Assembly: GCA_000004695.1 (NCBI GenBank)
Contig: CM000151.3
Coordinates: forward strand, 256,001 to 320,000
DNA length: 64,000 nt
Direction of reading: 5' to 3'
Origin: Dictyostelium discoideum
Lineage: Eukaryota
The notes under the pieces are model-generated. The model made no database searches, was not told the DNA's origin, and saw only the letters and a list, made by a program, of their open reading frames with translations. Of this stretch, positions 3,750-32,472 are shown piece by piece. The translations under genes were made by a program, and so were the position numbers. Within the stretch, counting starts at the first letter, position 1; each line of letters starts with the position of its first letter.

Positions 3750-3786
<37 letters not shown>

Positions 3787-6361: not shown

Positions 6362-6845
6362 AAAAAAAATAAAAAATAAAAAAAAAATAAAAAAGTGAAA
6401 TAATTTTTTATTTTTATTTTTTTTTTTTAAATAAAGATGTGGTTTCTCAATATTGAGAAGTTTTTTATTTTTTTTTTGAAAATTCTTTTTTTTTTTTTCC
6501 ATTATGGGAGGTCAATTTTTTTTCCAATTTTTTTTATTTTTTTTTATTTTTTTTTTTTATTTTTTTTTTTTAAATCGAATTTTTTACTTTTTTTTTATTT
6601 TTTTCTTTATTTTTGGTAAACATAAAAAAAGAGATATCAAATAGAAAAAAAAAAAAGTTATAAAAAAAAGAGAAATTAATTGTAATCATTTATTAATTAA
6701 ACATAAAGTTATTTTTTTTTTTTTTTTTTTTTTTTTATTCCAATTAATCCCATTTTTATTTTTCATAATAATTTTTATTTCCTTTTTAAAGTCTCATAAA
6801 AAAAAAAATTTAGAATTTGTTGGTCACTCTTTATAATTTAAACAA

Positions 6846-8050
6846 AAAATAATAATAATATCAACAAGTAAAAAAATAAAAACAGATAATAAAATATTTC
6901 AAGATCTGATTGATTTTGAAATTTTAAGATCCATAACCAATTATTTATTAACTAGCAAAAAAAAAATTAATAATAATAATAATATTAATAATATTAATAA
7001 TTTAAATAATAATAATATTATTAATCAATAAAATTAATAAATTTTATTTAAATAGAAATGAAATATTAAATTATATATTAGTTTCAAAAAAGTTGTATAA
7101 TTTTATATCATTAACAATATCAAATAATATTATTAATAATAAATCATTTGAACATTGGTTAAAAACTAATTATAATAATAATAAATCATTTATTGAAAAT
7201 TATAAAAATCAAAATCAATATGATAAAAATAAAATATTTTATAGCAAAGAAGATTATAATCAATATAAAATTAGTTTTAATAAAGAGTTTTCAACTATAA
7301 AAATCAAAGAATCAATAATCAATGATTATTTTAAATTCAATTTATTTTTAGATAAGCTTACAATTGGTGATATTATAGATATTAAAAATAAATTTGAAAA
7401 TAATCAATTGGTTTATAATAGAATTGTAGTTTATATTAAAACTGATGATGATTGGTTTCCATAATGTGATAATTTATTAAAATATTTAAAATACACGAAT
7501 ATGTATCAAATGGAAATTCAGAAATCATATGAAATTTATTTCAAATATTAGAATTAAATTATGGTTTTAGGTTGCGTAATGGCTATGATCCAAATCTGAA
7601 AGGGTATATTATGATGATAAAGGTAATAAGAAATCAACTGCTGAGTTATATTTTAATAATTTATCAATTGCTGGTAATAGATTTGCAGATGAAGATAACA
7701 AAACAGTCATGGTATTCAAAATATTCAAAGGTAAAAAATTATTTTATAATAAAACTTGTAGATATAGGTCAACACATGTCAATTGTTCATCATTATTTGG
7801 TCCAGATATTTCAGGTCAACAAGTTAAATCAATTGATTTATAAATTCGGTTTGGGAATTTGTTTATGAATTTAAAAATTTAATAAATAATATTTCAATTC
7901 AACAAAAACAACAACAAGAATCAAAACATAAATTTAAAAGAAATTAAAATTAAAATTGTAGTTGATAAATATGAAAAATTTCAAGAACTAAATTATTTTA
8001 AAAATCCATATTTCGCAATAGTAATAAAGAAATTACCAAAATGGTGGTAA
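6846..8050 (+). pseudogene. Decayed copy of the tandem family: family promoter motif present but ATG mutated (ATA), multiple stops and frameshifts, internal deletions
   Basis: tcactctttataatttaaacaaaaaataataataatATCAACAAGT at ~6836. ORF 7093..7464 encodes YNFISLTISNNIINNKSFEHWLK...NRIVVYIKT. Downstream fragments GNKKSTAELYFNNLSIAG, SGQQVKSID and NPYFAIVIKKLPKWW-stop lie in shifted frames. Confidence 0.75.
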
Positions 8051-8271
8051 CCTTAAAAGATAAAAAATAAATTTCTAAAAGCTAAAGATATATTTATGAC
8101 AGACATCCCTAGGAAAATATTTACAAAAAAAAAAAAAAAATAGAAAATAATATTATAGTATATTATTATTAATTTTTACACTTAATATTATTTATTATTA
8201 ATAAAAATATTATTATTTATTTGAATTAATTTGATTTGATTTAATTTGATTTATTTTTATAATCTTTAACA

Positions 8272-9460
8272 TCAATTAGGTCCATTTGAACAAAGTCTCA
8301 TTGTTTCTTTAATAAAGGCAACGATATAAGGGGCATTTTGTTTATGATTGAAATTGACATATTCATCATCTTTGACAGCTTTTTTAATTTCTAGATATGC
8401 AATCTCTTGAGGTTCTGGACGATTACATAATTGTAAAATTACCCAATTCATTGTGATTGTAACTGTACCAATGGCTGGTCCAAAAATATCAAAACAAATT
8501 TGATTGATTTTCATTGTATCTTCTTTAGTGATTTCATTTAATCCATATTCAATTAACAAATCATCCATTAAATCTCTTGGTTTACTTGGATCAATTGACT
8601 TAAAATGATTTTCATTTTGACTACTAATTATTTGTCTAACGATATCGCAACCTTTTAATCTTCTAGTAAAGAACCAATCATAAAGTGGTGAGAAAATTTC
8701 AAAACAATCAAATGCAGTTAGTTTTGAAAGATTACCAAAAACATGTTCAACTGCATTACCAATAGTTCTTGACAAGCCACTTTCAACTGATAAATCTTGA
8801 TTAAACATATATTTGAATAACATTGAACAAGCATATCCTTGAATATGTCCTTTTGGATAAAACTTAAAATAATTATTTAATAAATTAATATTAATAATTT
8901 TAATTGTAATTATTATTTCTTTAAAAAAAAACCTATAATTTCATTATTATTCGAAATTTTTTCAAGTGAATCAATAAATTCAATTGCTTTTTCTTCCATT
9001 AATTTTTTAGATGTATGAACTCTTAATTATTAAGAAACACTTGATTTTGCTCTTTTCCATTCGTCATCAGATGAGCTCATTACACCTAATCCATTACTTG
9101 AAGCATATCTCCAACCTGGAACTAAAAGTGATGGTTTGTAAAGGAAATTTTCATCTTTTTGAAAATACTTTACATCATAATTTGAGACAAATAAAAATAA
9201 TCTTTCTCCAATCCATGCTCTTACAATTAATTCATGTTCTTGAATTTTGAATAATTCCCAAAATCTAATTTGAACAACATTTCCAAGAATAGGAAATGCA
9301 ATTGGTCCACTTGGAGATTTTGTATGAATTTTCTTATTTTTTTTAACCTTTTTTTTTTTTGTAAAGAATTAATTAATTAATTTTAATTATTTCTAAAATA
9401 TATAAAATTAAATACATACAAAATCTTTTACCAAGAAAAGTATAATTAGAATAATAAAAC
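8272..9460 (-). pseudogene. Cytochrome P450 remnant. N-terminal anchor and Pro-rich hinge (PSGPIAFPILGN), WKRAK motif, I-helix-like GPAIGTVTIT and K-helix ETMRL are present. In-frame TAATAA (plus 9036-9041) sits after ...KSSVS. No PERF or heme-binding Cys region is present before the gene ends at 8272.
   Basis: Minus-strand translation of 9340..9040 gives KNKKIHTKSPSGPIAFPILGNVVQIRFWELFKIQEHELIVRAWIGERLFLFVSNYDVKYFQKDENFLYKPSLLVPGWRYASSNGLGVMSSSDDEWKRAKSSVS. ORF 8272..8823 gives ...DIFGPAIGTVTITMNWVILQLCNRPEPQE...VAFIKETMRLCSNGPN-stop. Introns with GT..AG at 8863-8932. Only AT-rich non-coding DNA follows until the family pseudogene at 8050. Confidence 0.6.
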
Positions 9461-10224: not shown

Positions 10225-13200
10225 ATGATTGAAGGAAATTTTGAAAAAAACAATGATAACCAAGTTGCAATAATTGGTCTTGGGCTAAGATTACCAGGTA
10301 ACTCGGGATCTCCTTTAGAGTTTTGGAAAAACTTGCTTGGTGGTTTTGATGGAATTGTTGATTCTAATGAAAGGTAAAAAAAAAAAAAAAAATTTAAAAA
10401 ATAAATAAATAAAAAATTAGAATTATAAAAAAAAAAATAAAAATAAAAAAAAAAATAAAAATAAAAATAAAAAAAAGTGATGGCGACTCACCTCTAACAC
10501 ACCATATTTTTTTTTATTTTAATTTTTTTCTTTTTTTTCATTTTCATCACCGTTGTCTTCATTTTTTTTTTTTTTTTTTAAATTATTATTTTTATTTATT
10601 TAGATGGAGCGACACATTCCATAGTATGGGAGAAATCTCAAATAAGAATGCAGGATTAATTGACTTGGAAGAGAATTGGCATTCTTTTGAGCCATTGTTT
10701 TTTGGGATCAATCCAACCGATGCTAAACAAATTGATCCACAAATTAAATTAATGTTAAAGTTAACATGGGAAGCATTTGAAGATGCATCAATTGATCCTT
10801 TAAAACTCAGAGGAACAAATACTTCTGTTTTTGTTGGTGCCGCAAATACTGATTATTCTTTTATTAATTTCGAATAAAATGAAGCGCCAATCAATGTTTT
10901 TAATGGTACTCTCAGCGCATTTGCAAATAGAATATCATATTGTTTTGATTTACGTGGTACTTCATTAACAATTGACACTGCATGTTCATCATCATTAAAT
11001 GCAGTTCATTTAGGATATGAATCAATTGTTAATGGTAAATCAAATTACTCTGTAGTAGCTGGTTGTAATATATTATTAAGTAATTATTATTATAATATTA
11101 GTAGCACACACATATATATAAAATAGTTTTCATATTTCTAATATTTTATTTTTATTATTATTATTATTCTAAAAAAAGATCCATATATTACTAGATCATT
11201 TCATTCAATTAATATTACAGGTAAATCTGGTAGATGTAATTCATTTGATGAATCTGCTGATGGTTTTGTACGTTCAGAAGGTGTTGTTGTATTAATTTTA
11301 AAAAGATTATCACTTGCAATTCAAGATAACGATCAAATTTATTGTGTAATGAAAGGAAGTAGTTCAAATGTAGATGGTACTTTTAAGAAAACAAACTTTT
11401 TTGCACCTTCAAAAAGTGCACAATCAACTAATATCAAAAATGCATTTTTATCATCTAATGGTGCAGTGAAATATCAAGATATTGATTTCTTTGAATTACA
11501 TAGTACAGGTACACAAGTAGGTGATCCAATCGAAGTTGAAGCTGTTGCTGATATTTTTAAAAATGTTAAACAAGAACCATTATTAATTGGATCAGTTAAA
11601 TCAAATATTGGTCATCTTGAACCTGCATCAGGTGTAGCATCATTAGCAAAAGTTTGTTTAATGTTTAAACATCGTCAATTTGTAAAGAATATCCATTTCA
11701 ATAACCCAAATCCAAATATTAAATTCAAAGAATGGAATGTTAAAGTATGCACAGAAACAACAGCATTCCCAGATAGACAAGTATCAATGGCAATCAATAG
11801 TTTTGGTATAACTGGTTCAAATGCATGTGTTTTATTGTCTGAATATATTAAACCTTCAGAATTAAAAAATCAAACATCCATGAAATTAAATGAAAAATCA
11901 AAATTATTAATACCAATATCAACCAACTCAAAGAAGTCACTCGAACAATTCAAATCAAAACTACTTGAAGAAATTGATACATACTCTGAAAGCTTAACTT
12001 TTGAAGAGTTTGCAATGTTCCAAGTTTATTCAAAAACAACCAAATTATCACAAAGATCAGTTTTAATTGGTAATGATTGGAATGATTTAAAAATTAATAT
12101 AAATGAAATTATTTCAACAAAAAATAATAAATCTGGTAATATTATCAAATCAAATGATATTAATCCACCATTAGTATTTTCATTTTGTGGTCAAGGTCCT
12201 CAATATTCAAAAATGGGTTTAGATTTATATGAAAATGAACCAATATTTAAACAATATATGGATTTATTAGATTCAATACTATTTAAATATTATGGATATT
12301 CAATCATTCAAAAACTAAGATCAATTAATGATGATCCAATTCTAATTAATGAACCAATATTAGCTCAACCATCTATATTTATGATTCAAATATCATTATA
12401 TAAATTATATTTGCATTGGGGAATCACACCATCAATAATAGTTGGCCATAGTTTAGGAGAAGTAGCCAGTGCATTTTGTTCAGGTATGATTGATTTAGAA
12501 ACAGCATGCTTCGTGATATATAAAAGAGCAATCATTCAAAATAAAACCAATGGATCTGGAAGACTTTTAGCAATTGGTTTAAATCTTGAAGAATTCTATA
12601 ATCAATTTTCAAAGGAATATCCAGAAATTGAAATTTCATGTTTTAACTCACCATCATCAATCGTTGTATGTGGTAATGAACATGATATATTAAATATTTC
12701 AAAATCATTAAAAGAGAAACAAATATTCAACTCTTTATTAGGTACACCATCAGCATTTCATTCATCAAAACAAGATATAATCAAAGATGAAATTATAGAA
12801 TCAACCAATCATATCCGATCAAGACCACCTTCTATAACAACATTTTCAACAGTCACATCAAATAAATTCGATAAAAATACACCTTATAATTCAAATTATA
12901 TATTTGACAATTTAAGAAAGCCAGTATTATTTCAACAAACCATTGAAAACATATTCAAACATATTGAATCAAATGATTTAGGTAATTCAGTAATATTTTT
13001 AGAATTGTCACCTCATCCAACTTTAAACCATTATGTTAAAGAAATGATTCCAAAGAATTCAAATTACTTTTTAAACAAAGATTCAATAAGTGTATTATCA
13101 TCAATAAATAAGAAAAAAGAAGATATCAACGAAATTCAATCAACAATTTCACAACTTTATTGTTTTGGTTACAATGTCGATTTTAGTGCCCAATTTAAAT

Positions 13201-16200
13201 CGGAAATAACATCAAATTCATTCAAGAAATGCTCATACATAATACCACATTATCAATGGGATGAATCATTATTTTGGAAAGAAGGTATTTCATCAATAAA
13301 TAATAGAAAGAATGGAGTATCAATAAATCAACTTGGTAATAAAAATGAATCATCACCACATATATCATATACATCATATATCGATATTAAAGAAGAACCA
13401 TTTAGATTCTTAAAAGATCATCAATTTCGTGGTAAATCAATTTTCCCAGGAGTTGGTTATTTGGATATTATTTTAAAACTTTTCCCAAATCAAGATTTAA
13501 CCATACCACTTTTAGAATTTAAATCACAATTTATATTATCTGAAGGTGTAAAAAAAACTCTTACAACCAATCTCTACAAAAGTGCAAAGAATGAATATAG
13601 AGCAACATTTAATTTTAAAGATCAAACAAGTGGTAAGTGGGTTCAATCTGCAAATAGTAGAATTTTAATGAAAAGTTTAGATGTAACAGTTAAAAAAGTT
13701 GATATTCAATCAATACGTGATCAATGTAATTGGTCAACTTTGAAAAGAGATCAATTATATAACTCAATTAAAAACTATTCAAACATTTCAATATTAGAAT
13801 CATTTCAAAGAATTGAAGAAGCTTCATATGGTGATAATAGATGCCTGTGTAAAATTTCATTGGATCCAACTTCAAGCTATGATAATGAATCATTTTTAAA
13901 TATTTGCATTATTGATACATGTATACATCCATGTATTTTCTTTGATAACCCAGCTTCGTCTGTTTTTGAAAGAATTGAACATTTAAAAATTTATTCTTCA
14001 AGTGTTCCATTAACTGCAGAAGATAGAGTGAAGCAACAATACGTTTACTGTTATGTTGAACTTATTAAACAATTTAGTGATTTTATGTATTTAAAAACAA
14101 CTTGTTTCTTAAAAGATGGTACTGTTCTATTACATTCTCCATTGGTAACAATTGCATCTACACTATCAACAAAAAATGAAATTGATATTGAATGTCCAAA
14201 CAATCAATTATTTTCACAATGTCTTCAACCAAAAGATTCAATTTTACAATCACCATTAATATTGAAAGAATATTTTAATCAACAACTTCAACTTCAACAA
14301 TCAAATATCATTTCAATATCTACTCTATCATCATATCTTTTTTCCACATTAAAGAAAATATTAAATAACCTCACCATTGATGAATTTCAAAATGATTCAC
14401 TTGAACAGTTGATTGAAAAATATTCATATATCTTGGAAGAAGTTCAAGAAGTTGGTACTATCAGATCCAATTTAATCCTCTTAACAATCAACTTTTTATT
14501 AACACATCACAAACATATTGATCAAAACCAAGTTTCAAACTTTCTCTTGAATAACATTCCAAACGAATTATTAGTTGTTGATAATATTGTTTCAAATAAA
14601 GGTATTTCACATATTGGTATTTATCAACATCAATTAATTTTAGATATAATTTCAAAATCAATTATTCCAATCGTAAATGAAAAAATAGTTTTTAGAATTT
14701 TAGAAATTGGATGTGGTGTTGGTGAATTAACTAAACTAATCAATGATAAATTAGAATCAATTTTAAATGATAATCCATCATATAACATTGATATAGAATT
14801 TGTATTTTCAGATTATACCGATTCAAAAGTATTATTAATTAAAGAAAGATTGTTCAGTTCAAAAAAGAGTTGTTTCTTTAAAATTATTGATTTAAACAAA
14901 CAATTACAAGAACAATCATTTTCACCATCTTATTATGATTTAATTATTCTATCAAATACAACAAATCAAATTAAAGATATCAACACATCAATTTCATTTG
15001 TAAATGAAATTTTAACTCCAAACGGTCATTTATTAATTTTAGATACAAATTTCATTCAAACATCAATAGATGAAGATTATTATTTAGAAAACTACAAACA
15101 ATGGTTATCATTTAATTATTTAAATTCTGGTAGTGGTGCAATGAAACTAAATCAATGGAATCAATTATTAATAAATGATTTGAAATTTAATAATTTCATA
15201 TGTTCAACAGGTGAAATTGAACCATATTTGATTCAAGTTCAAAAATCAAATTTATCAAATTCAATTAATTCAGTTAGTAAAGAGCATACATCAGAATATG
15301 ATCAAATTATAATTTTTGGTACTTGTGATGAAATTAATATTGGATCTTCTTTCTATGGCTTGGTTCCAATAGCAATAAATTCAATTGATAAGTTTAAAGA
15401 ACATGTCAAATTACAACAATTAACTGATAAATCATTAATATTATTTATTGAATCATTAAATCTATTAACAGTTGATAATTTTAATCAAGTCTCAATGAAC
15501 TATATAGAAATCAATCAACATTTATTAAAAAATGAAATTTCAGGTTGTAAACATATTTTAATTTCAAGAAATGTAAACTTTGAAACTTCAAACTTATTTG
15601 GATCATCATTAATTGGTTCATTTAGATACTTTTGTGAATTCAATCAATTAAATATATATTCATTTGAATTTGAAGGTAATAATATCCTTAGTGGTGATAA
15701 ATTATTTAATATTATTCAAGAATTATCAAATTCAAGCAAACATTCACAAAATGAATTTTCAATCAGAAGTGATGGTAAAATTTATTATGAAAGAATTAAA
15801 TTAGAATCAAATTTAAAATTAAAATATAAATCAAAATCATATATTGAAAATAAAAATGAATTAGTTTCAAGATTAAAACCAGATTTAACATTTGCATTAG
15901 AAGCGGTATTACCATTGAATCCAAATTTTGTTGAAGTTAAAGTAATGGCAAGTGGTGTTAATTTTAAAGATTTCTTAGTTTATCGTCAATTAATTAATAT
16001 GGCAAATTCAAATGAAAATGGTGATCCTTCAAAACCACAATTTGGATATGAACTAAGTGGAATCGTTACCAAAGTCGGTAAGAATGTGACCAAATTCAAA
16101 GTTGGTGATCATGTAATGGGAGGTGCTTTTCATACATTTTCATCAAGTGTTCATGTAGATCAAGAAAGAATCGAATTAAAACCATCAAACATTTCTTGGT

Positions 16201-17016
16201 TTGAAGCATCACACTCTTTAGTTTATTTAACTTCATATTGTAGTTTATTCGAACTTGGTAGATTGGATTTATATGGTTCAAGTGAAACAGTTTTAATTCA
16301 TTCAGGAAGTGGTGGTATTGGTTTATCTTGTATCGATTTATTACAAGTATATGGATTTAAAGGATATTTATTTGTAACTGTAGGCTCTGAAGAAAAGAAA
16401 CAATTTTTAAAAGATCGTTATGGTGATTTCATCACAGAGATTTATTCAACTAAAAATACAGACTATGAATATTTAATTAAAGAGAAATTAATTGAATTAA
16501 AAGCACCATCTCAAAAATATGGTAGTTTTTCAATGATTTGTGTGGATTTAATTATAAATACTTTATCAGCAGATTATATGTCCTGAATTTTCAAATAATC
16601 ACAACTTTATCCATCGTTCGTCAAATTATAAAATTCATCAAGATACTTTAGGTAAAACAATATTAATAACAGGTCAAGCAGGTCTTTCAGATACAATCAT
16701 AAAATGGATAAGAGAAAAAAGATCAGATTCTATTGAATCAATAATAGTATTATCAAAATCACCAATTAAATTTGAATTAGAAAGAGCAATTGGTAGAATA
16801 AGATCAACAAATTTGAAAATCTATTTTAAACAAGTTGATATTTCAGATGAAAAACTTTTATTAAAATCAATTAATCAATTATTTGAAGAAAATAAAAATA
16901 TTAAACCAATTGAATCAATATTCCATAATGCATTTTCACCAGCAGAATGTGAACCATTAGAAATTGATATGAATCATTTAATTATTGGTTTGATTAAAAA
17001 AAAAAAAAATGAATGA
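10225..17016 (+). pseudogene. Type I iterative polyketide synthase (Dictyostelium pks family), domain order KS-AT-DH-cMT-ER-KR(partial). Three lesions: in-frame TAA at 10875-10877 inside KS; frame change near 16580-16590 between ER and KR; KR truncated at 17016 with no ACP, immediately upstream of the transposon at 17116.
   Basis: Exon 1 10225..10373 ([30 protein letters not shown]...). Intron 10374..10603 (GTAAAA..TTTAG). Exon 2 10604..11079 with KS active site TIDTACSSSL. Intron 11080..11178 (GTAATT..AAAG). Exon 3 11179..16586. AT domain GHSLGE at ~12444. DH motif HQFRGKSIFPGVGYLD at ~13417. Methyltransferase LEIGCGVGELT at ~14700. ER KVMASGVNFKD at ~15940. KR Rossmann motif TILITGQAGLSD at ~16660, in the +1 frame. 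...DYSFINFE-TAA-NEAPINVFNGTLSAFANRISYCFDLRG is continuous KS sequence across the stop. Confidence 0.6.
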
Positions 17017-17115
17017 TCACATCCATTTTTTTTTTTTATATTTTATATTATTTTGTGCAAAATAAAAAAATAAAAAAATACACAAAAAACATATTCCCAA
17101 AAATTCAAATTTGCT

Positions 17116-17245
17116 GTTGTAGGGAATTTTCAATAAAATTTCACTGCCCAGCCAAAAAAAATTTAGGGTCAGTGATTTTTTTTTTTTCACTGTGAAATTA
17201 TCAAAATCACTGACCCTAAATTTTTTTTTTTTTCAAAAAACAAAT
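17116..17245. repeat. Left terminal inverted repeat of the transposon at 17116..19590
   Basis: Matches 55694..55820 in direct orientation and 19480..19590 and 60945..61054 in inverted orientation. Confidence 0.6.
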
Positions 17246-17306
17246 AAAGTTTGTTATTTTTTTGTTTTTAATTATTAATTCCTATTTTAATGGTTAATTA
17301 TTATAA

Positions 17307-17338
<32 letters not shown>

Positions 17339-18712
17339 TTTTTTCTCATTTTTTTTTTCTTTTTTTTTTATTTTCATATTTTCATTTTAGGACAACAAAT
17401 TATCAAACATTAAAGAAATCTAAAACTTCAGAATATTTATCATTTGAAAATAATTTAATTTAAAAGAAATGTGAAGAGTTTATATTATTTGTTATTAATG
17501 AATTACCAAAATTAAAATACTTAATTGGGTATTAATTTCAAAAGATGAAAGAACAAAAGCAGCAAAATTAGATAGTGAAGGTTTCTTTCAAAACAATTCT
17601 AAGTGTTACTCCAGTTGTTATCAATAATAAAAAATAAATAATAATAATAATGTGATATCATCAGCTCAATCTTCACTATCATTAAGTAGTGCATCAACAC
17701 CAATTCCAACTCCATTAAATACTAGTAGTAATAATATTGGTGGTAATACTACTACAAGTGTATCAGTGGGATAATCCCCAACAATTAGGGGTATACCATC
17801 ATCACCAGATCAACAAGTTTTATTCAACGCAAACCATCAGTCGGTGCAATATGATGCCAAAATTAAATTCTTCTTTGAATTGATCAACTGATTTCCTTGG
17901 TAAAGAAAGAGAAAATCATCAATCATCTTCACCTTCATATTCATCATTATCAATATCATCATCATCACAACAGCAACATAATAGTAACAATCATCCAAAA
18001 TCGATTGATGAAGCACCTGAAGTATTATCACCATTTGATATTTTACAATCAAAAGTTAATGCAGAGAATTCTTTATCTTCATCACAAGATTTAAATCAAC
18101 ATAATGTAACAACGGCTAGTCAAATTTTACAAGAAATTAAACCAACTAAAGAATTAACTAAACAAGAAACTGAAGCATGCAATTCCAGAGGAACCAATTG
18201 AAGAATGTAATAAATCAACTACAACCACTGCAATTAAGATCATCTTCTTCATCTTCTTCATCTTCTACAACAACAACAAAAACAACAACAACATCACCAC
18301 CACCACAACAACAATTAGATTCGCCATTACCATTACCAGTTAATATTATTAATATGCCAATGGATGATGATGAACTTATTAGTGATGGTACAATAAGTGG
18401 TGCTTAAACTAATGATGGTATCAATTATTGTACCATCATTAGTTAAAGAATCATCAAGAGAATCATTATTGGCTACAACTATTGATAATTCAACATTATC
18501 AACTACACCATCACCATCTCCAAAATTACCAACTCTTGAAACTGCTAAACCATTGTTACATCATCATCTTCTTCTTCTTCAAACACCACTACTCAAACTA
18601 ATAAAGTTTCTGGTGGTTCTGCTAAAGAAATTTGGACTAAAATTGATCAAAATACTGCACCATCAACTCCATCTAAAATTTTACCAAAAAGATTACCTTC
18701 TCAATCAAATCT

Positions 18713-18713
<1 letters not shown>

Positions 18714-18774
<61 letters not shown>

Positions 18775-18778
18775 TAAT
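18714..18778 (+). repeat. (AAT)n microsatellite, ~20 units
   Basis: Direct read. Inside the transposon at 17116..19590. Confidence 0.9.
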
Positions 18779-19342
18779 TAATTAAATAAATAAACAAAAA
18801 GAATAAATAAATAAAAACAATAAATAAAAAAAAAGATAATAAAATAAAACTACAATCTTAATTGAAAAAATAAATAAATAAATAAATAAATAAAATAAAT
18901 AAATAAAATAAAACTAGTTTTAATAAATCTAAAACTTTGTAAATATGTTTTGAAAAAAAAAAAAAAATTTTTATTTTATTGTTTAACTAAATTTGGTTTA
19001 AAATTCAAATAAAGAACTATCTACTCTAAAAAAGAAACCCTTTTCAAATGATAATTGTTGAACACCATTTCTACAATCACTACCGTCATGAGTAGAAAAT
19101 TACCATTTAAACTAAATTGAATAAATCCACTCGATAACCTGTTGGAAATTAGCTACTTGATGTTTTTTAATTATTATTTATTGTTTATTTGTTTATTTGT
19201 CTATTTATTTATTCATTTATTTATTCATTTATTTATTCATTTATATATTCATTCACTAATAATATTACCTACTTTAAAATTGAAAAAATGAAAATGAAAA
19301 AAAAAAAAAAAAAATTGAAAAAAATTGAAAAAAAAAAAATTG

Positions 19343-19391
<49 letters not shown>

Positions 19392-19479
19392 TCCCCATAT
19401 TTTTAATATTAAATAAAATAATAATTAAACCCAAAAATAAAATTCCCATTTAATAAACTTTATTTGTTTTTTGAAAAAA

Positions 19480-19590
19480 AAAAAAAATTTAAGGGCAGTG
19501 ATTTTTTTTTTCACTGCACAACTGTAGTGAAATTAAATAATAAAATTCACTGCGCTGGGCAGTGAAATTTTATTGAAAATTCCCTACAAC
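19480..19590. repeat. Right terminal inverted repeat of the transposon at 17116..19590
   Basis: Reverse complement of 17116..17245. Ends ...ttccctacaac. Confidence 0.6.
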
Positions 19591-19866
19591 AAAATAAATT
19601 TTTTGCTACCTCTAGTTTTTTTTAATCTATAATAAAAATATAAATATCCAAAATTATTAATTGAAATTTAATTGATTTTTAAATTGACAAAAGAAAAAAA
19701 AAACCGATATCTTGGACATCCAAGACAAAATTTTTTTTTTTTTTTAATTTTTTAATTTTTTTTCTTTTTTATTTTCTGCTTTTTTTTTTTTTTTTTTTCT
19801 TTTAAACAAAAAAACATAAATAAAAATAAAAAATAATAAATAACAAATAAATAATAAACAATTATA

Positions 19867-22800
19867 ATGAATAATGAATATAATGAAATATTATTTTGGA
19901 AAGTTTTTAAAAATAAATATTTATTAAATTATATATTAAAAAATAAATGTTGTCGTAAAAGTAAAAAATTTAAAAATATCACATCAGTAGATTCAATGTT
20001 AAAACATAAATTATATCAACTTTTGATATGTAAATTAAAAGCAGATGAAAATTTAAAATTTAAACATAGAAATTATAAAATCATGAATGAAATAAAAGAT
20101 ATAGAAGTATTCAAAGAGATATATTCATTATTACTTTTTAAAGGTTACCAAGGCTCTGAGGTTTTATTCGAAAAGATTTGGGGTATAAAATCAGTAGATT
20201 TATTTGATTTTCATATAAAATATCATCCAGAAGTATTTCAAACCTATATAGATCTTAAAATACACTCAATCTTCATATATAATCATCCAAAATTAATAAT
20301 AAAGGTTTTAAAATTTTTAGAAGAGTCCATCAATCATAATAAACCATTTACTTTTACCAAAATTGAAAGAAATTTTATCATTATGGAATATTTATATTAT
20401 AAACAACACCGATGCAATAGTGAAGAATTTAAAGAAAAGATGGAAATAATATCTAATATTCCAATATCTTCAACCTCAATACTTCAAAATTCATTTTCAA
20501 GTTCAGATAATAGTGTGGATGTAAATTGGTATCTAAAAAATAAAAAATTAATACCTTTTGGATTTAATAATATTCAAACATCATTTCATTGCTCTAAAGA
20601 AACTTTAAGATATTATTTCTCTCGTATTGGCGAGAAGAGAGATAAAGATATTCAACAATCTGTTTATTGCAAAAATAATTTAAGAATGTTTTCAAACTTT
20701 TGTTCTGACTTTGATTTTGCTATTTCCGACATCTATGAATGTATCTCTTCATCTATCAATTCAGTTTTATTATATTTTAAATTGTATTATTGCAACTATC
20801 ATGAATTTAGTAAATCAAAAAGTATACCAACATCGATTCAAACTCAAATTGATATAATAATTGGAAATAGTAAACATAGTGATTATAATGAATATCAATC
20901 AATTAAACAATTATTTCAACTATTTATTAATGAAACTAAATCTAATGTTTTATATGCATGGTATTTAAAAGAATATAATGAACCAATTGACACCATTCGA
21001 CTCTGTGAAAAAATTAAACTATTGTTAATATATTTTATGGCAAAAACCTATAGCACCAATATATTAAAGTTTCTATTGAAAAAACATGTAAAAATCAATA
21101 TAACAAAATCAGATTTGGACTATATTGGTGAAACATATCTCAACACTTTATTCAAAAGTAATCAAATAGATAATAACAATATTATTATGTTCTATAAAAT
21201 CTATTCCACACAAAAATCAATCATTATAGAAGATATTGAAGAAAAACCATTAGATGATGTAATATCAACAAAGGAACTTATCGATTTGCCTGAAAAACAA
21301 TTTCAATTAATTCTATTATCGAAATGGAAAGAAATTACATCAAATCTAATTGATAATGATATGATTGTTACAATTAAAGATAAAGAAACAATCGATTGGT
21401 TATCAGATATCGAAACAGGTGGTTGTAGTATTTTAAAAATAAGAAATGCTTTAAATTCAAAATTAAATCAAATGAAACTTGATTTTAGTACATCAGAATT
21501 ATTAGAATATGCAAGAATCAAATTTAAACGAGTAATTCCAATTTTAGATTCAAATAAACAGTTGTGTAATATTCACATTTTACGTACTCATGATGATATT
21601 GTATCATTAATCAATCGATTAAACCAATCAAACTTTAATGATAATGAAGATTTATTTAAATATTATATGATTCAAATTATTCAATTTGGTTCAAAAAATT
21701 CAATTAAATACCTAAGATTAATTTGTGATTCTATTGATGGGTTATTGTTGGACTATCTTGATTGGGGGGTTTTAGTAATGAGAATATTTAATTACGATTT
21801 GAGACTGTTTTATATTAACTCATATATATATGATATTTGGGATGTTTCGGCAGGTTATCATGAAAATGAAAAATTCAAACAATATAAAATACCAACTCAA
21901 CAAACATGTCAAATAATCAATCTCACTAAAATTAAAGTAAATTTCAATAACTTTCCAAATGTAACCTCTTATTTATTTCAAACATTTATTGAACTTTTAA
22001 ATTTTGAAGGTGTACAATTTATTCTTGATAATTTAAATGGTAAAGATTTAAAATTACATGAAAAAGCATTTAAAGATCGTTTTGATCATAGAATCTATAC
22101 ATGCAAATATTTATATAAAGATTTAATTGATATTATTCAGTTTTTAATTGATAGATTCAAAGATGGTCAATTATCATTATCAAATTTATCATTGATATTA
22201 AATTTCTTTTATTTAAAGTTAATTAGAGTCAATAATTTAACAATTGACCAAATTAAAACAGCTCATCAATTAATATCAAATTATATCAAAATAAAGAGTT
22301 CAAAATACACTTCATACTATTATTTAAAAACTTTTTCACCAATCATCGGATCATGTGTAGTCGTTATTGAAGTTCCCTGTGGTAGTTCTTTAAAAGAACC
22401 ATTCTTGAAATATTATATAAATACATCAGTATATACATTCGAATATATATTTACTGATAGAAATAATAAAGATTTAAATCAATTTATCGATTCAACAATC
22501 ATGGACATTGTAAAAGATAACTTTAATATCCAAGTCTCCAAGATGTTAGATTATAATAATCCAAGAGTTAATTTATTTTTACATTATTTCGAAATTGAAT
22601 TAAAATTTAGAAAGGAAAATAAAATCAAAAAACCATTTTTAAAATACCAACTATTGAAATTAATAATTAAAACATTTGATTTAGAATCATTTATTAAATT
22701 AGATAATTTATTACAACAATATGAACAAGAGGATGCTAATGATGATGGTGGACATGAAAATATAATAGGATCTATAGATAAATATAGATCCTATAGATAT

Positions 22801-22956
22801 TATGTCAAACCATTAGCATCTAATATGGTTGAATGGTTTGGTATAATTGTATACAAAGATTATTCAGATTATCAAGATATTATAAATTACTTATTTAATA
22901 AATATAAAAGCCAATTGAAACCATATGTAAATTACTATAAATCAAAAATCTGGTAG
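19867..22956 (+). CDS. Large hypothetical protein (1029 aa), N/K/I-rich with no recognised domain. Its N-terminal EILFWKVFKNKYL motif resembles EILFWKLFRNKAIY in ORF 47584..48540(-).
   Basis: Single long ORF with non-repetitive codon usage. A tandem hairpin plus T-run lies 90-150 bp downstream. Confidence 0.5.
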   Translation: MNNEYNEILFWKVFKNKYLLNYILKNKCCRKSKKFKNITSVDSMLKHKLYQLLICKLKADENLKFKHRNYKIMNEIKDIEVFKEIYSLLLFKGYQGSEVLFEKIWGIKSVDLFDFHIKYHPEVFQTYIDLKIHSIFIYNHPKLIIKVLKFLEESINHNKPFTFTKIERNFIIMEYLYYKQHRCNSEEFKEKMEIISNIPISSTSILQNSFSSSDNSVDVNWYLKNKKLIPFGFNNIQTSFHCSKETLRYYFSRIGEKRDKDIQQSVYCKNNLRMFSNFCSDFDFAISDIYECISSSINSVLLYFKLYYCNYHEFSKSKSIPTSIQTQIDIIIGNSKHSDYNEYQSIKQLFQLFINETKSNVLYAWYLKEYNEPIDTIRLCEKIKLLLIYFMAKTYSTNILKFLLKKHVKINITKSDLDYIGETYLNTLFKSNQIDNNNIIMFYKIYSTQKSIIIEDIEEKPLDDVISTKELIDLPEKQFQLILLSKWKEITSNLIDNDMIVTIKDKETIDWLSDIETGGCSILKIRNALNSKLNQMKLDFSTSELLEYARIKFKRVIPILDSNKQLCNIHILRTHDDIVSLINRLNQSNFNDNEDLFKYYMIQIIQFGSKNSIKYLRLICDSIDGLLLDYLDWGVLVMRIFNYDLRLFYINSYIYDIWDVSAGYHENEKFKQYKIPTQQTCQIINLTKIKVNFNNFPNVTSYLFQTFIELLNFEGVQFILDNLNGKDLKLHEKAFKDRFDHRIYTCKYLYKDLIDIIQFLIDRFKDGQLSLSNLSLILNFFYLKLIRVNNLTIDQIKTAHQLISNYIKIKSSKYTSYYYLKTFSPIIGSCVVVIEVPCGSSLKEPFLKYYINTSVYTFEYIFTDRNNKDLNQFIDSTIMDIVKDNFNIQVSKMLDYNNPRVNLFLHYFEIELKFRKENKIKKPFLKYQLLKLIIKTFDLESFIKLDNLLQQYEQEDANDDGGHENIIGSIDKYRSYRYYVKPLASNMVEWFGIIVYKDYSDYQDIINYLFNKYKSQLKPYVNYYKSKIW

Positions 22957-23157: not shown

Positions 23158-23447
23158 TTTGTTTTTTTTTTTATTTTTATTTTTTTTTTTCTAAGTATGT
23201 TGTTATAAAAGTGTAGTGTTCATATTTATTTTAATTTCTCTTTTTTTTTTGGTGTACACCAAAAAAATAATATAAAGAAATAATAATGTTAACAAAAAAT
23301 AAAAATAAATATTTCAAGATATTATTTTTTTGAAATTTTAAAATCCATGTGTTTTTATTTTTTTTTGTTTTTTTATTTTTTTTTTTTTTAAGTTTTAAAT
23401 ATTTTCATTTTTTTAACTCATTAGTCAGCTCACTCTTACAAATAATT

Positions 23448-25436
23448 ATGTCAACAAATAAAAAATTTAAAAAATATAATAATAAAATATTTCAAGATGT
23501 TATTGATTTTGAAATTTTAAGATCTATAATCAATTATTTATTAACCAGCAACACAAATAAAAAAAATAATAATAATAATTACAACACTAGTAATCAATAT
23601 AAAATTAATAAATTTTATTTAAATGGAAATGAAATATTAAATTATACATTAGTTTCAAAAAAGTGGTATAATTTTATATCATTAACAATATCAAATAATA
23701 TTATTAATAATAAATTATTTGAACATTGGTTAAAAATTAATTATAATAATAATAATAATTATAATATTATTAATAATAAATCATTTGATAATTGGTTAAA
23801 AATTTATAATAATAATAATAATAAATCATTTATTGAAAACTATAATAATCGAAATCAATATGATAAAAATAATTTATTTTTAAAAAGTGCTAAACAAAAT
23901 AAAATTAGCCAATTTAAAATTAGTTTCAATAAAGAGTTTTCAATTATAAAAATCAAAGAATCAATAATTAATGATTATTTTAAATTCAATTTATTTTTAG
24001 ATTATATTACAATTGATGATTTTAAAGAAATTAAAAAGAAATTTGAAAATAATCAATTACTTTATAATAGAATTGTAATTGATATTAATATTGGAAATGG
24101 TTATGATGATTATAGTTCAAACCAAAGTGATATTATATTTAAAATACATGAATATATATCAAATGAAAATTTAGAGACTATATCAAATTTATTTAAAATA
24201 TTAGAATTAAATTATGTTTATTTGGAAATTGGGGATTATATTCCAAAATCCCCTGAAAAGGGCAAAAGTAATAATAAGAAATGTACCGAAATGTATTTTA
24301 AAAGTTTATCAGTTGATGGTTTATATGAGAACGAAGAAACAGTAAAGATATTCAAAATTTTCAAAGGTAAAAATGTAATATTTCATGGTCCAACACATGC
24401 CGACTCACCATTATTTGACCCAGATAATTCAGGTCAACAAGTTGAATCATTTAAAGTACAAACTGATTTATTCGGATCTTTTGTTGAAGCACGTCATCTA
24501 ATCAAAAGTAATCAATTTGAAAATTTACATTCAATTTCAATAAAAATTAATTCATTTCAAATATTATCAAATATATCTGAAGAAATGGGATCTTATAGAT
24601 TCTATAATAATCATAATTATAAAAATGATCCACCAGATTCGAAAAATATGAAATCAGAATTAAATCAAATGATTAACTCATTCATTACAAGTAAATCTTT
24701 AAAGAATTTAAAAATAACAGCCAATAATACTACACACTATTCAATTGAATATGATGCTTGCTATATTGGAGGTGATCATGAAACTTTTGCAAATAAAATA
24801 AATGAAAATATAGAATCATATTCAAATTCATTTAAACCATTATTTTCAGAATTAAATACATCAATTGAAAGAATTGAATTAAATTGTTGTGGTTTATTAA
24901 ATATCAATACATTTTCAAATTTATTAAATAATAAATCAATTAAATATCTATATTTATACGGTGATAGTGATTTCATTGTTTACTCATCAAAACAAAATGG
25001 TGGTAATAGTGGTGGTGGTGATGGTGTATTACATAAAGAATCTATTTCAATTAATCAGTATTTATTTGATAATATATTTACATCACCATTAACATCAATT
25101 AGACATTATAGAATTAAATTCAAAGAATCAAATCAATTAAAATTAATATTTAATTTAATATTTAATAATATTTTTAAATTACAATTGTATTCATTAATAT
25201 TTAAAATTTATAAAAACGAATTAGTTGGTGAATTTGTTAAAGAATTTAAAAATTTAATAAATAATATTTCAACACAACAAGATCAACAACAAAAATTAAA
25301 TAACATATATTTAAAAGAAATTAAAATAAAAATTGAAGATGATAAATATATTCAAGAATTAAATAATATTAAAAATCCATATTTCACAACAGTAATAAAG
25401 AAATTACCAAAAAGGTTGTGTACACTTAAAAGATAA
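23448..25436 (+). CDS. Tandem-family paralogue (~663 aa from MSTNKKFKKYNNKIF)
   Basis: ORF 23349..25436. The paralogue-conserved ATG is at 23448, preceded by tcagctcactcttacaaataatt. All conserved blocks are present. Gly-rich cassette NGGNSGGGDGVLHKE. Confidence 0.8.
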   Translation: MSTNKKFKKYNNKIFQDVIDFEILRSIINYLLTSNTNKKNNNNNYNTSNQYKINKFYLNGNEILNYTLVSKKWYNFISLTISNNIINNKLFEHWLKINYNNNNNYNIINNKSFDNWLKIYNNNNNKSFIENYNNRNQYDKNNLFLKSAKQNKISQFKISFNKEFSIIKIKESIINDYFKFNLFLDYITIDDFKEIKKKFENNQLLYNRIVIDINIGNGYDDYSSNQSDIIFKIHEYISNENLETISNLFKILELNYVYLEIGDYIPKSPEKGKSNNKKCTEMYFKSLSVDGLYENEETVKIFKIFKGKNVIFHGPTHADSPLFDPDNSGQQVESFKVQTDLFGSFVEARHLIKSNQFENLHSISIKINSFQILSNISEEMGSYRFYNNHNYKNDPPDSKNMKSELNQMINSFITSKSLKNLKITANNTTHYSIEYDACYIGGDHETFANKINENIESYSNSFKPLFSELNTSIERIELNCCGLLNINTFSNLLNNKSIKYLYLYGDSDFIVYSSKQNGGNSGGGDGVLHKESISINQYLFDNIFTSPLTSIRHYRIKFKESNQLKLIFNLIFNNIFKLQLYSLIFKIYKNELVGEFVKEFKNLINNISTQQDQQQKLNNIYLKEIKIKIEDDKYIQELNNIKNPYFTTVIKKLPKRLCTLKR

Positions 25437-25454
25437 AAAATAAAACATCAAAAA

Positions 25455-25930
25455 AACTGGTGATTATGGTAGTGGTGGAAGTGGTAGTGGTAATAGTGGT
25501 GGTGATGGTGTATTACATAAAGAACCTATTTCAATTAATCAATATTTATTTGAAAATATATTTACATCTCAATAAACATCAATTAGACATTATAAAATTA
25601 AATTCAAAAATTCAAAACAATTAAAATTAATATTTAATTTAATATTAAATAATATTTTTAAATTACAATTATATTCATTAATATTTGAATTCTATGAAAA
25701 AGAATTAATTGGCGAATTTGATAAAGAATTTAAAAATTTAATAAATAATATTTCAACACAACAACAACAAAAATCAAATAACATAAATCTAAAAGAAATT
25801 AAAATTAAAATTAAAATTAAAATTAGACATAATGAATTAATTCAAAAATTAAATAATATTAATAATCCATATTTCAAAACAGTGATAAAGAAAATAGCTT
25901 TTAATGATGGTCGTGCACCGGAGAAAAAAA
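25455..25930 (+). pseudogene. 3'-terminal fragment duplicate of the family gene (segmental partial duplication) with an in-frame stop
   Basis: Encodes GDYGSGGSGSGNSGGDGVLHKEPISINQYLFENIFTSQ-stop-TSIRHYKIKFKNSKQLKLIFNLILNNIFKLQLYSLIFEF...NPYFKTVIKKIA. No 5' part is present. Confidence 0.7.
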
Positions 25931-26233
25931 CCTAAGAAATTTTACTATTTTGTGAGAAATTAAACTACCGCAAAAACTCATATTTTAAGAAACGATATTA
26001 TAATTTAATAAAATTTTTAACAAACTAATATCAATTTCTAATTAATAATTAATCACACTTTATTATTAAATTATCATAAAATAATAAAAGAATCTGGCCA
26101 TAATAAAAATATATTTTAATAAATTAAAAATTGATAAAATCTAATATTATTTAATTAAAATTACATTGGTCCATCAACTTCCATGCTGCATCATCAAACT
26201 GCTCCATAAACAACAATAAACAGCAACCAATCA

Positions 26234-26272
<39 letters not shown>

Positions 26273-26760
26273 GATTTAAATTTAGGAACAATTCACAAAA
26301 GTCATACTAATTATACCTTGTGATGTGAGGATTAAATTGAGTTTGTGCTTGAATTGATTGATCATGCAGAGTTTCTGAGCGGTTTGTCTGGTTGGTTCCA
26401 GATGTTCCAACACACCCTTTGATTTATATGTTGTTGATTTATATATTTGTTTGAGTGTGACACATTTGAAGGTTTAAAAAAAAAAAAAAAAAAAATTAAA
26501 AAAAAAAAAAATTTTTATTATTTATTTTTTTTAAACCATGACCAAATTTTTTTTTTTTTTTTTTTTTTGTGTTTATTTTAATAATTTATTTGTTTTTAAA
26601 TTTGTTTGAAATAGAAAAAGAATGAAACTTTAAAATTAAAAAAAAAATATGGAGATATTTGTGATGGTACCATTAAATTTCAAAAAAAAAAAAAAATTAA
26701 AAAAAATTTAAAAAAAAAAAATTGAAAAAATGAGCCATCCAAAATATCTGATTATTTTAT

Positions 26761-26802
<42 letters not shown>

Positions 26803-26858
26803 AAATTTAATTTTTTTTTTTAATTTTTTTATTAAAAAAAAAAAAAAAAAAAATCTAG

Positions 26859-26898
26859 CATTAGTCAGACTCACTCTTTATAATTTAGACTAATAATA
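26859..26898 (+). promoter_or_regulatory. Family-conserved upstream/5'-UTR motif (A)ACATTAGTCAGACTCACTCTTTATAATTTAAACAAATAATA immediately before the ATG
   Basis: Recurs at 29149-29189, 32432-32472, 38733-38764, 41635-41662, 23420-23447, 6826-6860 (pseudogene), 40795-40830 (orphan), 55540-55563, and inverted at 45917-45955. Degenerate versions at 1990-2016 and 4250-4279. Confidence 0.6.
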
Positions 26899-28827
26899 AT
26901 GTCAACAAATAAAAAAATAAAAACAGATAATAATAATAAAAAATTACAAGATATTATTGATTTTGAAATTTTAAAATCTATAATTAATTATTTATTAATC
27001 AACAAAAAAAATAATAATAATAATAATAATACTAGTAATCAATATAAAATTAATAAATTTTATTTTAATATAAATGAAATATTAAATTATATATTAGTTT
27101 CAAAAAAGTGGTATAATTTTATATCATTAACAATATCAAATAATATTATTAATAATAAATCATTTGAACATTGTTTAAAAATTAATTATAATAATAATAA
27201 TAAATCATTTATTGAAAATTATAATAATCAAAATCAATATGATAAAAATTATTTAATTTTTAAAAACAAAGATAATAACCAATATAAAATTAGTTTTAAT
27301 AAAGAGTTTACAATTATAAAAATCAAAGAATCAATAATTGAAGATTATTTTAAATTCAATTTATTTTTACATAAGTTTGAATTTGAAGATTTTAAAGAAA
27401 TTAAAAATAAATTTGAAAATAATCAATTACTTTATAATAGAATTGTAGTTAATGTTGATACTGATTATATGTGTGAAGATGATACTTTATTAAGAATACA
27501 GAAATATATATCAAATGAGAATCCAGAAATCATATCAAATTTATTTAAAATATTAGAATTAAATTTTGGTTTTTGGTTGGAAAATGGTTATCGTCCAGAT
27601 TCTGAAGAGGATGAGGAGGAGGGGGAGGATGATGATGATGATACTGATGATAAAGGTAATAAGAAATGTACCACTGAATTATATTTAAATAATATATCAA
27701 TTGATGGTTTTTGTATAGATGATGGTGAAGATAATGAAACAGTAAAGATATTCAAAATTTTAAAAGGTAGAAATTTAATTTATAGGGGATCTGATGTTGA
27801 AAGTGATAGTCCGACACATGTCAATTATTCAGCATTATTTGATCCAGACAATTCAGGCCAACAAGTTGAATCAATTAAAGTAAAAAATGAGTCTGATAAT
27901 GAAGAATTTGTTGAAGCACGTCATTTAATCAAAGTTCATCAATTTGAAAATTTACATTCAATTACAATACCAATTAATTCATTTCAAATATTATCAAACT
28001 TATCTGAAGAAATGGGATTTTATTCGTTATATCGTAATAATGCAGATTCAGGTAATTCAGAAAATATGAAATCAGAATTAAATCAAATGATCAATTCATT
28101 AATTACATGTAAATCTTTAAAGAATTTAAATTTATCATGTGCAAAATATATAAGCTTTAGTTTTGATGATTTTTCTCGTTTTGATCAAATTTTTGCTAAT
28201 CAAATAAATGAAACTATAGAATCATATTCAAATTCCTTTAAACCATTATTTTCAGAATTAAATACATCAATTGAAAGAATTGAATTTGATTGTATGGGTT
28301 TATTAAATATCAATACATTTTCAAATTTATTAAATAATAAATCAATTAAATATTTATATTTGTATGGTAATAGTGATTTCATTGTTTACTCATCAAAACA
28401 AACTGGTGATAATGGTGGTGGTGGTGATGATGATATTAATGAATTACATAAAGAACTTATTTCAACTAATCAATATTTATTTGATAATATATTTTCATCA
28501 CCATTAACATCAATTAGACATTATAAAATTAAATTCATAGAATCAAAACAAATAAAATTCATATTTAATTTAATATTAAATAATATTTTTAAATTACAAT
28601 TATATTCATTAATATTCGAATTCAATGAAAACGAAATAGTTGGTGAATTTGTTAAAGAGTATAAAGATTTAATAAATAATATTTCAACACAACAAAAACA
28701 AGAACAAAAATCAAATAACATAAATTTAAAAGAAATTAAAATTAAAATTAAAGATGATAAATATATTCAAGAATTAAATAATATTAATAATCCATATTTC
28801 TCAACAGTAATAAAGAAAATGGCTTGA
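26899..28827 (+). CDS. Tandem-family paralogue (642 aa)
   Basis: Intact ORF. Conserved blocks and upstream motif cattagtcagactcactctttataatttagactaataata at 26859-26898. Confidence 0.85.
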   Translation: MSTNKKIKTDNNNKKLQDIIDFEILKSIINYLLINKKNNNNNNNTSNQYKINKFYFNINEILNYILVSKKWYNFISLTISNNIINNKSFEHCLKINYNNNNKSFIENYNNQNQYDKNYLIFKNKDNNQYKISFNKEFTIIKIKESIIEDYFKFNLFLHKFEFEDFKEIKNKFENNQLLYNRIVVNVDTDYMCEDDTLLRIQKYISNENPEIISNLFKILELNFGFWLENGYRPDSEEDEEEGEDDDDDTDDKGNKKCTTELYLNNISIDGFCIDDGEDNETVKIFKILKGRNLIYRGSDVESDSPTHVNYSALFDPDNSGQQVESIKVKNESDNEEFVEARHLIKVHQFENLHSITIPINSFQILSNLSEEMGFYSLYRNNADSGNSENMKSELNQMINSLITCKSLKNLNLSCAKYISFSFDDFSRFDQIFANQINETIESYSNSFKPLFSELNTSIERIEFDCMGLLNINTFSNLLNNKSIKYLYLYGNSDFIVYSSKQTGDNGGGGDDDINELHKELISTNQYLFDNIFSSPLTSIRHYKIKFIESKQIKFIFNLILNNIFKLQLYSLIFEFNENEIVGEFVKEYKDLINNISTQQKQEQKSNNINLKEIKIKIKDDKYIQELNNINNPYFSTVIKKMA

Positions 28828-29189
28828 TTAAGGTTATTTATAAAAAAAAAAAAAAATAAAAAAAAAAATAAAAAAACTTATATTTTTTAAATTTATAATT
28901 TTTTTTTTTTTCATTTTATGTGGACCTATCTTTTTCCAAAAACTAATTATGTTTTTTTTTTTTTTTTAATACATTAACATAAATTTTTTTTTTTTTCACA
29001 CAATAACACACATTTTTTGAAATTAATTTTTGATATTTTTTTTTTTTTACCAAAAAAAAAAAATATTAAATTAAATTTTTTTTTTTTTTTATTTTTTTAT
29101 TTTAATACAGGTCAACCAATTGGCAAACTAAAAAAAAAAAAAAATTTAACATTAGTTAGACTCACTCTTAATAATTTTAATAAATAATA

Positions 29190-29297
29190 ATGTTAACAAA
29201 TAAACAAATAAAAACAGATAACAATAAAATATTTCAAGATATTATTGATTTTGAAATATTAAAATCAATAATCAATTATTTATTAATTAGCAAAAAT

Positions 29298-29345
<48 letters not shown>

Positions 29346-31112: not shown

Positions 31113-31399
31113 TTATGGTTATGTTTATTAGAAAAAAAAACCAAAGTACTTAAATAGCTCAAAAACCAAACATTTCAGAAATTCTTATTTTAGAAAAAAA
31201 AAAAAATAAAAAAAAAAAAGAATAAAAAAAAAAATAAAAAAAAGGATATATGTATTTATAGATCTTAATTATACAAATAATAAAATTATCTTATTTTAAT
31301 ACCTATTTTTTTTTTGATAATCCGAAAAAAAAATAAGAGTTCTATTATTTTATTTTTTTTTTTTTTTTTTTTTTTTTTTAGTTTCGAGAAACTAAATGT

Positions 31400-32060: not shown

Positions 32061-32164
32061 TAAAAATAAATTAAAAAAAAAAAATGAAAAAAAAAATGAA
32101 AAAAAAAAAAATGAAAAAAAAAAAAAATTAAAAAAAAAAGGGTTTTTTTTTTTTTTATTTTAAT

Positions 32165-32380: not shown

Positions 32381-32431
32381 TGAAAAAATAAAAATTAATT
32401 ATTATCCAAAAAAAAAAAAAAAAAAAATTTA

Positions 32432-32472
32432 ACATTGGTCAAACCCACTCTTTATAATTTAAACAAATAATA
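32432..32472 (+). promoter_or_regulatory. Family-conserved upstream motif (aacattggtcaaacccactctttataatttaaacaaataata)
   Basis: Alignment across paralogues. Confidence 0.6.

Follow-up and report, generated by a model that had tools for sequence, protein, structure and literature searches.

A probable Tdd-4 derivative enclosing a decayed coding sequence in Dictyostelium discoideum

Introduction

Tdd-4 and Tdd-5 are the founders of Ginger2/TDD. Among cut-and-paste transposons, this group has the integrase closest to the ones that long terminal repeat (LTR) retroelements and Polintons encode. Elsewhere, DNA transposons that carry gene fragments include the Pack-MULEs and maize elements of the Ds1/Ds2 type. 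Here we describe E1, a 2.5-kb element of Dictyostelium discoideum that probably belongs with both: its ends are those of Tdd-4, and its interior is a decayed coding sequence. It is compared with E2, a 5.4-kb Tdd-4 copy in the same 64,000-nucleotide stretch (positions 256,001 to 320,000 of contig CM000151.3, GenBank assembly GCA_000004695.1), which we call the window and whose own numbering is used throughout.

TDD-4 has been described as an element of 3839 bp with long terminal inverted repeats (TIRs, 260 bp), TGTNR termini and a 5-bp target-site duplication, or TSD (Bao, Kapitonov & Jurka 2010, PMC2836005). A non-autonomous Ginger2, the 252-bp Ginger2-1N1_NV, is listed for Nematostella (Table 2, PMC2836005). 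Among GingerRoot elements, 29% carry gene fragments (PMC6839031). In the D. discoideum genome itself, Tdd, DDT and thug are all families of DNA transposons (PMC5633606).

Results

Two elements bounded by one terminus

The 16-mer GTTGTAGGGAATTTTC is found at exactly four sites in the window: 17116 (+), 19590 (-), 55694 (+) and 61054 (-). Shuffled sequences would give 0.02 matches; this and the other chance figures were computed against shuffles or against the window's own k-mer frequencies, because the window is 79% A+T. The four sites make up two inverted pairs, which delimit E1 and E2 (Table 1), and all four ends can be aligned. The actual ends of both elements lie one base outside the 16-mer and read TGTTG...CAACA. 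An exact-pattern scan for the terminus in JGI metagenomes and prokaryotic genomes returned no match, as expected.

E2 fixes the exact ends and the length of the TSD, 5 bp, which the first-pass annotation of this stretch had left undefined: its two flanking pentamers match at all five positions, with a chance of about 0.004. The E2 TIRs differ by two mismatches and one indel over 146 bp, and a weaker T-rich similarity continues to about 260 bp. Wells, in 1999, reportedly gave a TIR of 145 bp for Tdd-4. The first-pass annotation had the two elements sharing termini that are exact inverses over some 110-130 bp. The sharing stands, and so does the inversion in E2, where it is near-perfect; in E1, however, the arms are identical to each other over their outer 38 bp only. 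An inverted duplication then intervenes in the left arm, with similarity resuming further in, and overall the E1 arms are about 74-76% identical. The likeness of E1 to E2, previously thought to stop after about 130 bp, in fact reaches about 272 bp into the left end of E1 and some 293 bp into the right, and is restricted to these end regions.

A subterminal direct repeat was also seen correctly at the right termini, but its period is 36 bp instead of the 35 bp first given, and E2 has two units in each arm. Each unit consists of a small palindrome, CACTRC-N5-6-GYAGTG, followed by GAAWTT. A motif scan places the E2 units at 55720 and 55756 in the left arm and at 60975 and 61011 in the right; E1 has two in its right arm, at 19512 and 19548. 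The paired palindromes are presumed integrase-binding sites. For comparison we used locus L002 of strain GCA_054883475.1, locus L003 of strain GCA_054859355.1 and four more loci rich in transposable elements, L001, L004, L005 and L006. The first palindrome has a private variant, CACTGCCCAGC..., in both E1 arms, while E2 and a third Tdd-4 end, from L001, have CACTAC... at this place. The variant common to both arms makes E1 a matched pair of ends and not two random solo ends.

E2 is a Tdd-4 copy interrupted by two insertions

The minus strand of E2 encodes a multi-exon integrase that combines an H2C2 zinc finger with a DDE core. Pfam recognises Integrase_H2C2 (E 5.8e-8), and rve scores E 2e-6, below its cut-off. 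The protein is 92-97% identical to those of DDB_G0292352 and DDB_G0282919 in strain AX4, and an SPXX-type repeat run is visible in the translation downstream of the core. By its structure E2 is thus a copy of Tdd-4 (Ginger2/TDD); the label rests on structural matches because the sources call the AX4 proteins only 'hypothetical' or 'integrase catalytic domain'. The family had earlier been named as Tdd-4-like, and the case is now stronger: size, TIR, TSD, TGTNR termini, SPXX region and protein identity all agree.

The length of 5.4 kb is due to two nested insertions of about 750 bp, similar to MITEs (miniature inverted-repeat transposable elements), without which E2 measures 3844 bp. The second insertion interrupts the N-terminal exon of the integrase; its excision in silico rejoins ...VINDYRMVSLWEEMHKGH... 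and restores a continuous exon. In addition, the second Tdd-4 open reading frame (ORF), MIEELIDSIKLL...ELIKIN at 56385-56077 on the minus strand, contains one in-frame stop. With this stop and the two insertions, E2 itself is probably not a source of active integrase.

The same MITE-like family is dispersed, with members at L001 2083-2629 and 9727-10236, L005 8948-9676 and L006 14580-15331. Its ends are CACAGCAAAGAAAAAACCACCTTTAAA...TTTAAAGGTGCATTTTTCTTTGCTGTG, its interior has 12-bp tandem repeats (TTAAAAATTACC-like), and AT stands on both sides. ARAGORN and Rfam found no tRNA or other RNA family in E2 and the nested insertions, despite stretches that resemble tRNA halves by eye, and gave only sub-threshold miRNA matches.

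The interior of E1 is a frameshifted coding sequence

Nothing in E2 or in the rest of the window corresponds to the interior of E1, 17389-19298. Three-frame translation reveals one coding sequence (CDS) on the plus strand, which hops between frames and reaches a natural stop at 18714-18716; we refer to it as the passenger. Its stitched translation contains neither a Pfam domain nor a transposase. The interior had been described as lacking a transposase and holding only shattered low-complexity ORFs. The first part is right, the longest ORF of E1 being no more than 125 aa, but the second is not: the interior is one frameshifted CDS, not merely low-complexity sequence. Of the two origins that had been offered for E1, a deletion or a filler derivative, the second fits, with the termini of the larger element around a foreign interior.

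No reverse transcriptase domain was found by Pfam in E1 or E2, and the terminal repeats are inverted, not direct, so that neither is a retroelement.

The passenger occurs at other loci with the same frameshift

Among 1.84 billion representative proteins, segment 17893-18174 has a sole match, AX4 DDB_G0282771 (66 aa, 96% identity). This protein ends in ...ETEACNSRGTN*, which is the out-of-frame ending that the window also has after a frameshift near 18175. DDB_G0278667 (316 aa), its mate in a 90% cluster, contains three separate pieces of E1: KCEEFILFVINELPKLKYLIG, ASTPIPTPLNTSSNNIGGNTTT and KRENHQS...ETEACNSRGTN*. Both genes are on a 6.36-Mb AX4 contig, which is probably chromosome 3, and DDB_G0271218, the right-hand neighbour of E1, is on another. 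Annotated solely as hypothetical proteins, the two appear to be gene models read from sister copies of E1.

L003 contains a copy of the 3' part of the passenger that is 81% identical and has an internal deletion; part of the tail is also present there in inverted form. Some 2.3 kb from the passenger fragment is a diverged Tdd-type end (...AAATTTCCCTACTA). The sample of L001, L004, L005 and L006 contains Tdd-4 ends and the nested MITE-like family, and no further E1-type passenger.

Since dispersed copies share the same inactivating frameshift, the passenger was amplified after its death. This argues for copying of the dead insert as one unit, and carriage in a mobile element would explain the amplification. 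The first-pass annotation had also named termini of an LTR or non-LTR kind, or an absence of other copies, as signs of a different nature; the termini are inverted, and further copies of the E1 interior exist.

Two other features of L003 are worth recording. Directly upstream of the passenger fragment, at 7246-8520, is a candidate TIR-type element of about 1.3 kb, TGTTGTAGCGAG......AAAATTTCCCTAAAT, with an (AAATC)n microsatellite; it may be another non-autonomous element of the Ginger2/TDD type. At 10984-11339, a 356-bp piece of a tandem gene family of the window sits inside a Tdd-like remnant and is 90% identical to window 53757-54119.

Table 1. Features of E1, E2 and their surroundings in the window.
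Feature	Position	Strand	Remarks
E1, probable complete non-autonomous Tdd-4-type element, 2477 bp	17115-19591		TGTTG...CAACA; 98.5% identical in GCA_054883475.1 (L002 7275-9725)
E1 left end region: TIR and T-rich subterminal tract	17115-17386	+	73% vs E2 left end, ~272 bp
Local inverted duplication (palindrome) in E1 left arm	17154-17228		88% self-complementary
Passenger: decayed CDS (pseudogene)	17389-18716	+	~8 frame changes, 3 in-frame stops
AT-rich 3' tail of passenger: (AAT)n, AAAT repeats, poly-A	18717-19298	+	partly common to L003, once direct, once inverted
E1 right end region: TIR and poly-A/T subterminal tract	19299-19591	-	88% vs E2 left end, ~293-295 bp
Two subterminal palindromes CACTGC-N-GYAGTG, E1 right arm	19512-19564		19512-19529 and 19548-19564; 36-bp period
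E1 left flank pentamer TTTGC	17110-17114		right junction 19592-19596 is AAATA
E2, Tdd-4 copy, 5363 bp, integrase on minus strand	55693-61055	-	3844 bp minus two nested insertions
E2 TSD TTGTT, left copy	55688-55692		right copy 61056-61060
E2 left TIR, 146 bp, near-perfect	55693-55838	+	partner 60911-61055 (145 bp)
Nested MITE-like insertion 1 in E2, 748 bp	58124-58871		ends CACAGCAAAG...CTTTGCTGTG, AT/AT flanks
Nested MITE-like insertion 2 in E2, 767 bp	59690-60456		94% identical to insertion 1, AT flanks
Polyketide-synthase pseudogene (KS_C, AT, DH, MT, ER, frame-shifted into KR)	11349-17016	+	KR cut at profile position 91/180

E1 stands beside a truncated polyketide-synthase pseudogene

Contig JBTAPE010000001.1 (strain assembly GCA_054883475.1, locus L002) is colinear with window 9867-32956 at 99.7% identity, and ORF 19867-22953, on the right of E1, matches AX4 DDB_G0271218 at 100% identity. 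To the left of E1 is a polyketide-synthase (PKS) pseudogene. The pseudogene probably starts near 10250, and its ORF, 11349-16586, suffers a frameshift at about 16586; most of the ER domain has apparently been lost internally, and no ACP was found. The PKS stop codon is 98 bp from the left end of E1. No PKS sequence exists to the right of E1, where there are only 275 bp before DDB_G0271218. The missing KR half was also sought inside E1 and rejected there, with no Pfam hit. With E1 taken out, 373 bp would separate the upstream stop (17016) from the start of DDB_G0271218 (19867), which is a credible length for an intergenic region.

The left flank pentamer of E1, TTTGC, occurs again at 19601-19605, 9 nt past the right end, the chance of a recurrence within 20 nt being about 0.012. 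This is only a hint, for example of imprecise cleavage that carried along 9 nt of a former flank. We rejected a 17-nt duplication at the E1 flanks: 10 matches of 17 are not significant in AT-rich DNA.

The automated annotation of GCA_054883475.1 contains a 2426-aa model that fuses the PKS pseudogene with the passenger through the left TIR (L002 385-8926, corresponding to window ~10251-18792).

Neighbouring gene families and repeats

The window is rich in a tandem gene family of about 12 copies, with ORFs of 570-730 aa that are 60-95% identical to one another (2017-8100, 23349-34452, 38765-45916, 53490-55472 and 61314-63032); one copy, 43937-45916, is inverted. DDB_G0271218 (19867-22956) is a member of another large family, variable between strains, of proteins of about 1000-1600 aa without Pfam domains. 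A search with this gene led to AX4 and to one near-identical strain, GCA_054883475.1; other strains gave only paralogues of it, many in number and 60-73% identical, clustered on single contigs. Finally, 72-bp tandem repeats, about 13 or more units, occupy 714-1908, within or beside ORF 636-1478.

Discussion

E1 is probably a non-autonomous, passenger-carrying derivative of Tdd-4 (Ginger2/TDD), in which unrelated DNA of about 1.9 kb has taken the place of the integrase-encoding interior. It is placed in the Tdd-4 family because its termini and TIR architecture match. The passenger would be a host-type protein-coding gene fragment with an AT-rich 3' tail, inactivated by frameshifts beforehand, and E1 a member of a small multicopy family, here crippled at a rearranged site.

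Such an element could have originated in the repair, from an ectopic template, of an interrupted copy or of the double-strand gap that excision leaves. It would move only if Tdd-4 integrase from an autonomous copy such as E2 bound its ends, cut at TG/CA and integrated them with a 5-bp stagger. Without a transposase of its own, E1 would depend on one supplied in trans, and we infer that it was mobilised in this way. An adjacent deletion may then have come after its insertion, or recombination may have removed the DNA between two family members. As E1 lacks a TSD and the PKS is cut in the middle of a domain, these two histories are the likeliest, and either would erase the TSD. The present flanks of E1 are then probably not those of its original insertion site. 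The damage to its left arm makes it probable that this copy can no longer move.

Several observations weigh against this reading. The left arm of E1 is rearranged, and the motif scan finds no intact palindrome in it, because the inverted duplication at 17154-17228 took their place. There is no 5-bp TSD: TTTGC on the left stands against AAATA on the right, and the same holds in the second strain. Nor was an empty site or an insertion polymorphism found, the sole orthologous locus compared, L002, having E1 in place. The AX4 copies of the passenger were traced at the level of gene-model proteins, and the L003 copy is fragmentary, with a single diverged end. An intact parent gene of the passenger was not found, either in the 1.84-billion-protein search or with the stitched passenger, a search that low-complexity words dominated, with P0025 as the sole return. 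Lastly, the several copies of the passenger might in principle stem from a host gene family in decay or from segmental duplications, and not from transposition.

The alternative that survives best concerns the history of E1 and not its identity. Two copies of the E1 or Tdd-4 type, in the same orientation, may have recombined and deleted the intervening DNA, including the 3' end of the PKS, so that E1 would be a chimera, its left flank derived from one insertion site and its right flank from the other. This is a real possibility, though short of even odds. It would agree with the absence of a TSD from E1, whereas E2, 36 kb off, has a perfect one; with a PKS cut halfway through KR about 100 bp from the left end and missing on the right; and with arms that are so dissimilar overall. 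Against it, the outer 38 bp and the private palindrome variant are the same in both arms, as in a single element, although a recombination of sister copies would fit this too. The PKS has other lesions as well, the frameshift and the internal ER deletion, so that E1 may have had no part in its truncation.

A further question is whether E1 already bears a name among the D. discoideum repeat families (Glockner et al. 2001, Repbase, dictyBase), for example as a structural variant of Tdd-4, which we regard as unlikely. The repeats of this species have been charted exhaustively, including the Tdd, DDT and thug families (PMC5633606), and dictyBase has 19 Tdd-4 elements. The accessible literature, outside which the primary catalogue papers lie, has however no Tdd-4 derivative with a foreign interior, and both AX4 models in the sister copies are annotated only as hypothetical. 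In favour of a known variant one could also count a 3.4-kb deleted version of Tdd-4, which Wells is said to have described in 1999. We rejected E1 as that version: it contains no Tdd-4 interior whatever.

A bolder proposal would see here a 'Pack-Tdd' family, that is, Ginger2/TDD transposons that capture and amplify host gene fragments in an amoebozoan, the E1 copy having also remodelled the PKS locus by removing its 3' end and supplying a new coding-like region and 3' end. We hold this to be improbable. If it were true and the fusion transcribed, it would be a case of transposon-mediated exon shuffling in the large PKS repertoire of Dictyostelium.

We give hardly any credence to a reading of E1 as two solo Tdd-4 end fragments, independent of each other, with native DNA, a decayed local gene, between them by chance: the missing TSD and the compatible reading directions across PKS, left end and interior in the 2426-aa model would suit it, but both fragments point outward, are truncated at similar depth (~272 and ~293 bp) and share private variants, while the interior has no PKS homology (no Pfam, KR or ACP) and is not locus-specific, the same frameshift recurring at other AX4 loci and one copy lying near a Tdd-type end in L003.

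Taken as a passenger-carrying Tdd-4 derivative, E1 would mean that in Dictyostelium Ginger2/TDD yields such derivatives, as MULEs, hAT and GingerRoot do elsewhere. It is also a natural ends-only substrate, with which one could ask which parts of the 146-bp TIR and of the paired palindromes the integrase needs. For annotation, masking the E1 family would remove the PKS-passenger fusion model and the hypothetical-protein artefacts of AX4. Nothing in this would surprise transposon specialists.

Among known systems, thug and DDT are further DNA-transposon families that share the genome with E1. The termini of E1 are those of Tdd-4 and differ from the CACAGCAAAG... ends found on the nested elements. 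Ginger2-1N1_NV resembles E1 in having no transposase and in keeping the TIRs of an autonomous Ginger2 partner. It differs in representing the short MITEs of Nematostella, present in more than 50 copies and without a passenger, whereas E1 is 2.5 kb long, low-copy and carries a gene fragment. With Pack-MULEs, Ds elements and GingerRoot, E1 shares the principle of TIRs from an autonomous family placed around captured, non-functional coding sequence and amplified together with it; the superfamily and host are different, and for E1 only a handful of copies are inferred, with no parent gene. Closest is Tdd-4 itself. E1 lacks its integrase and SPXX region, measures 2.5 instead of 3.8 kb, and has no TSD and a rearranged left arm, but it has the TGTTG...CAACA ends (TGTNR) and the TIR and subterminal architecture of Tdd-4, in the same host. 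As a non-autonomous mobile element E1 is of an ordinary type, and what is new about it lies in the details.

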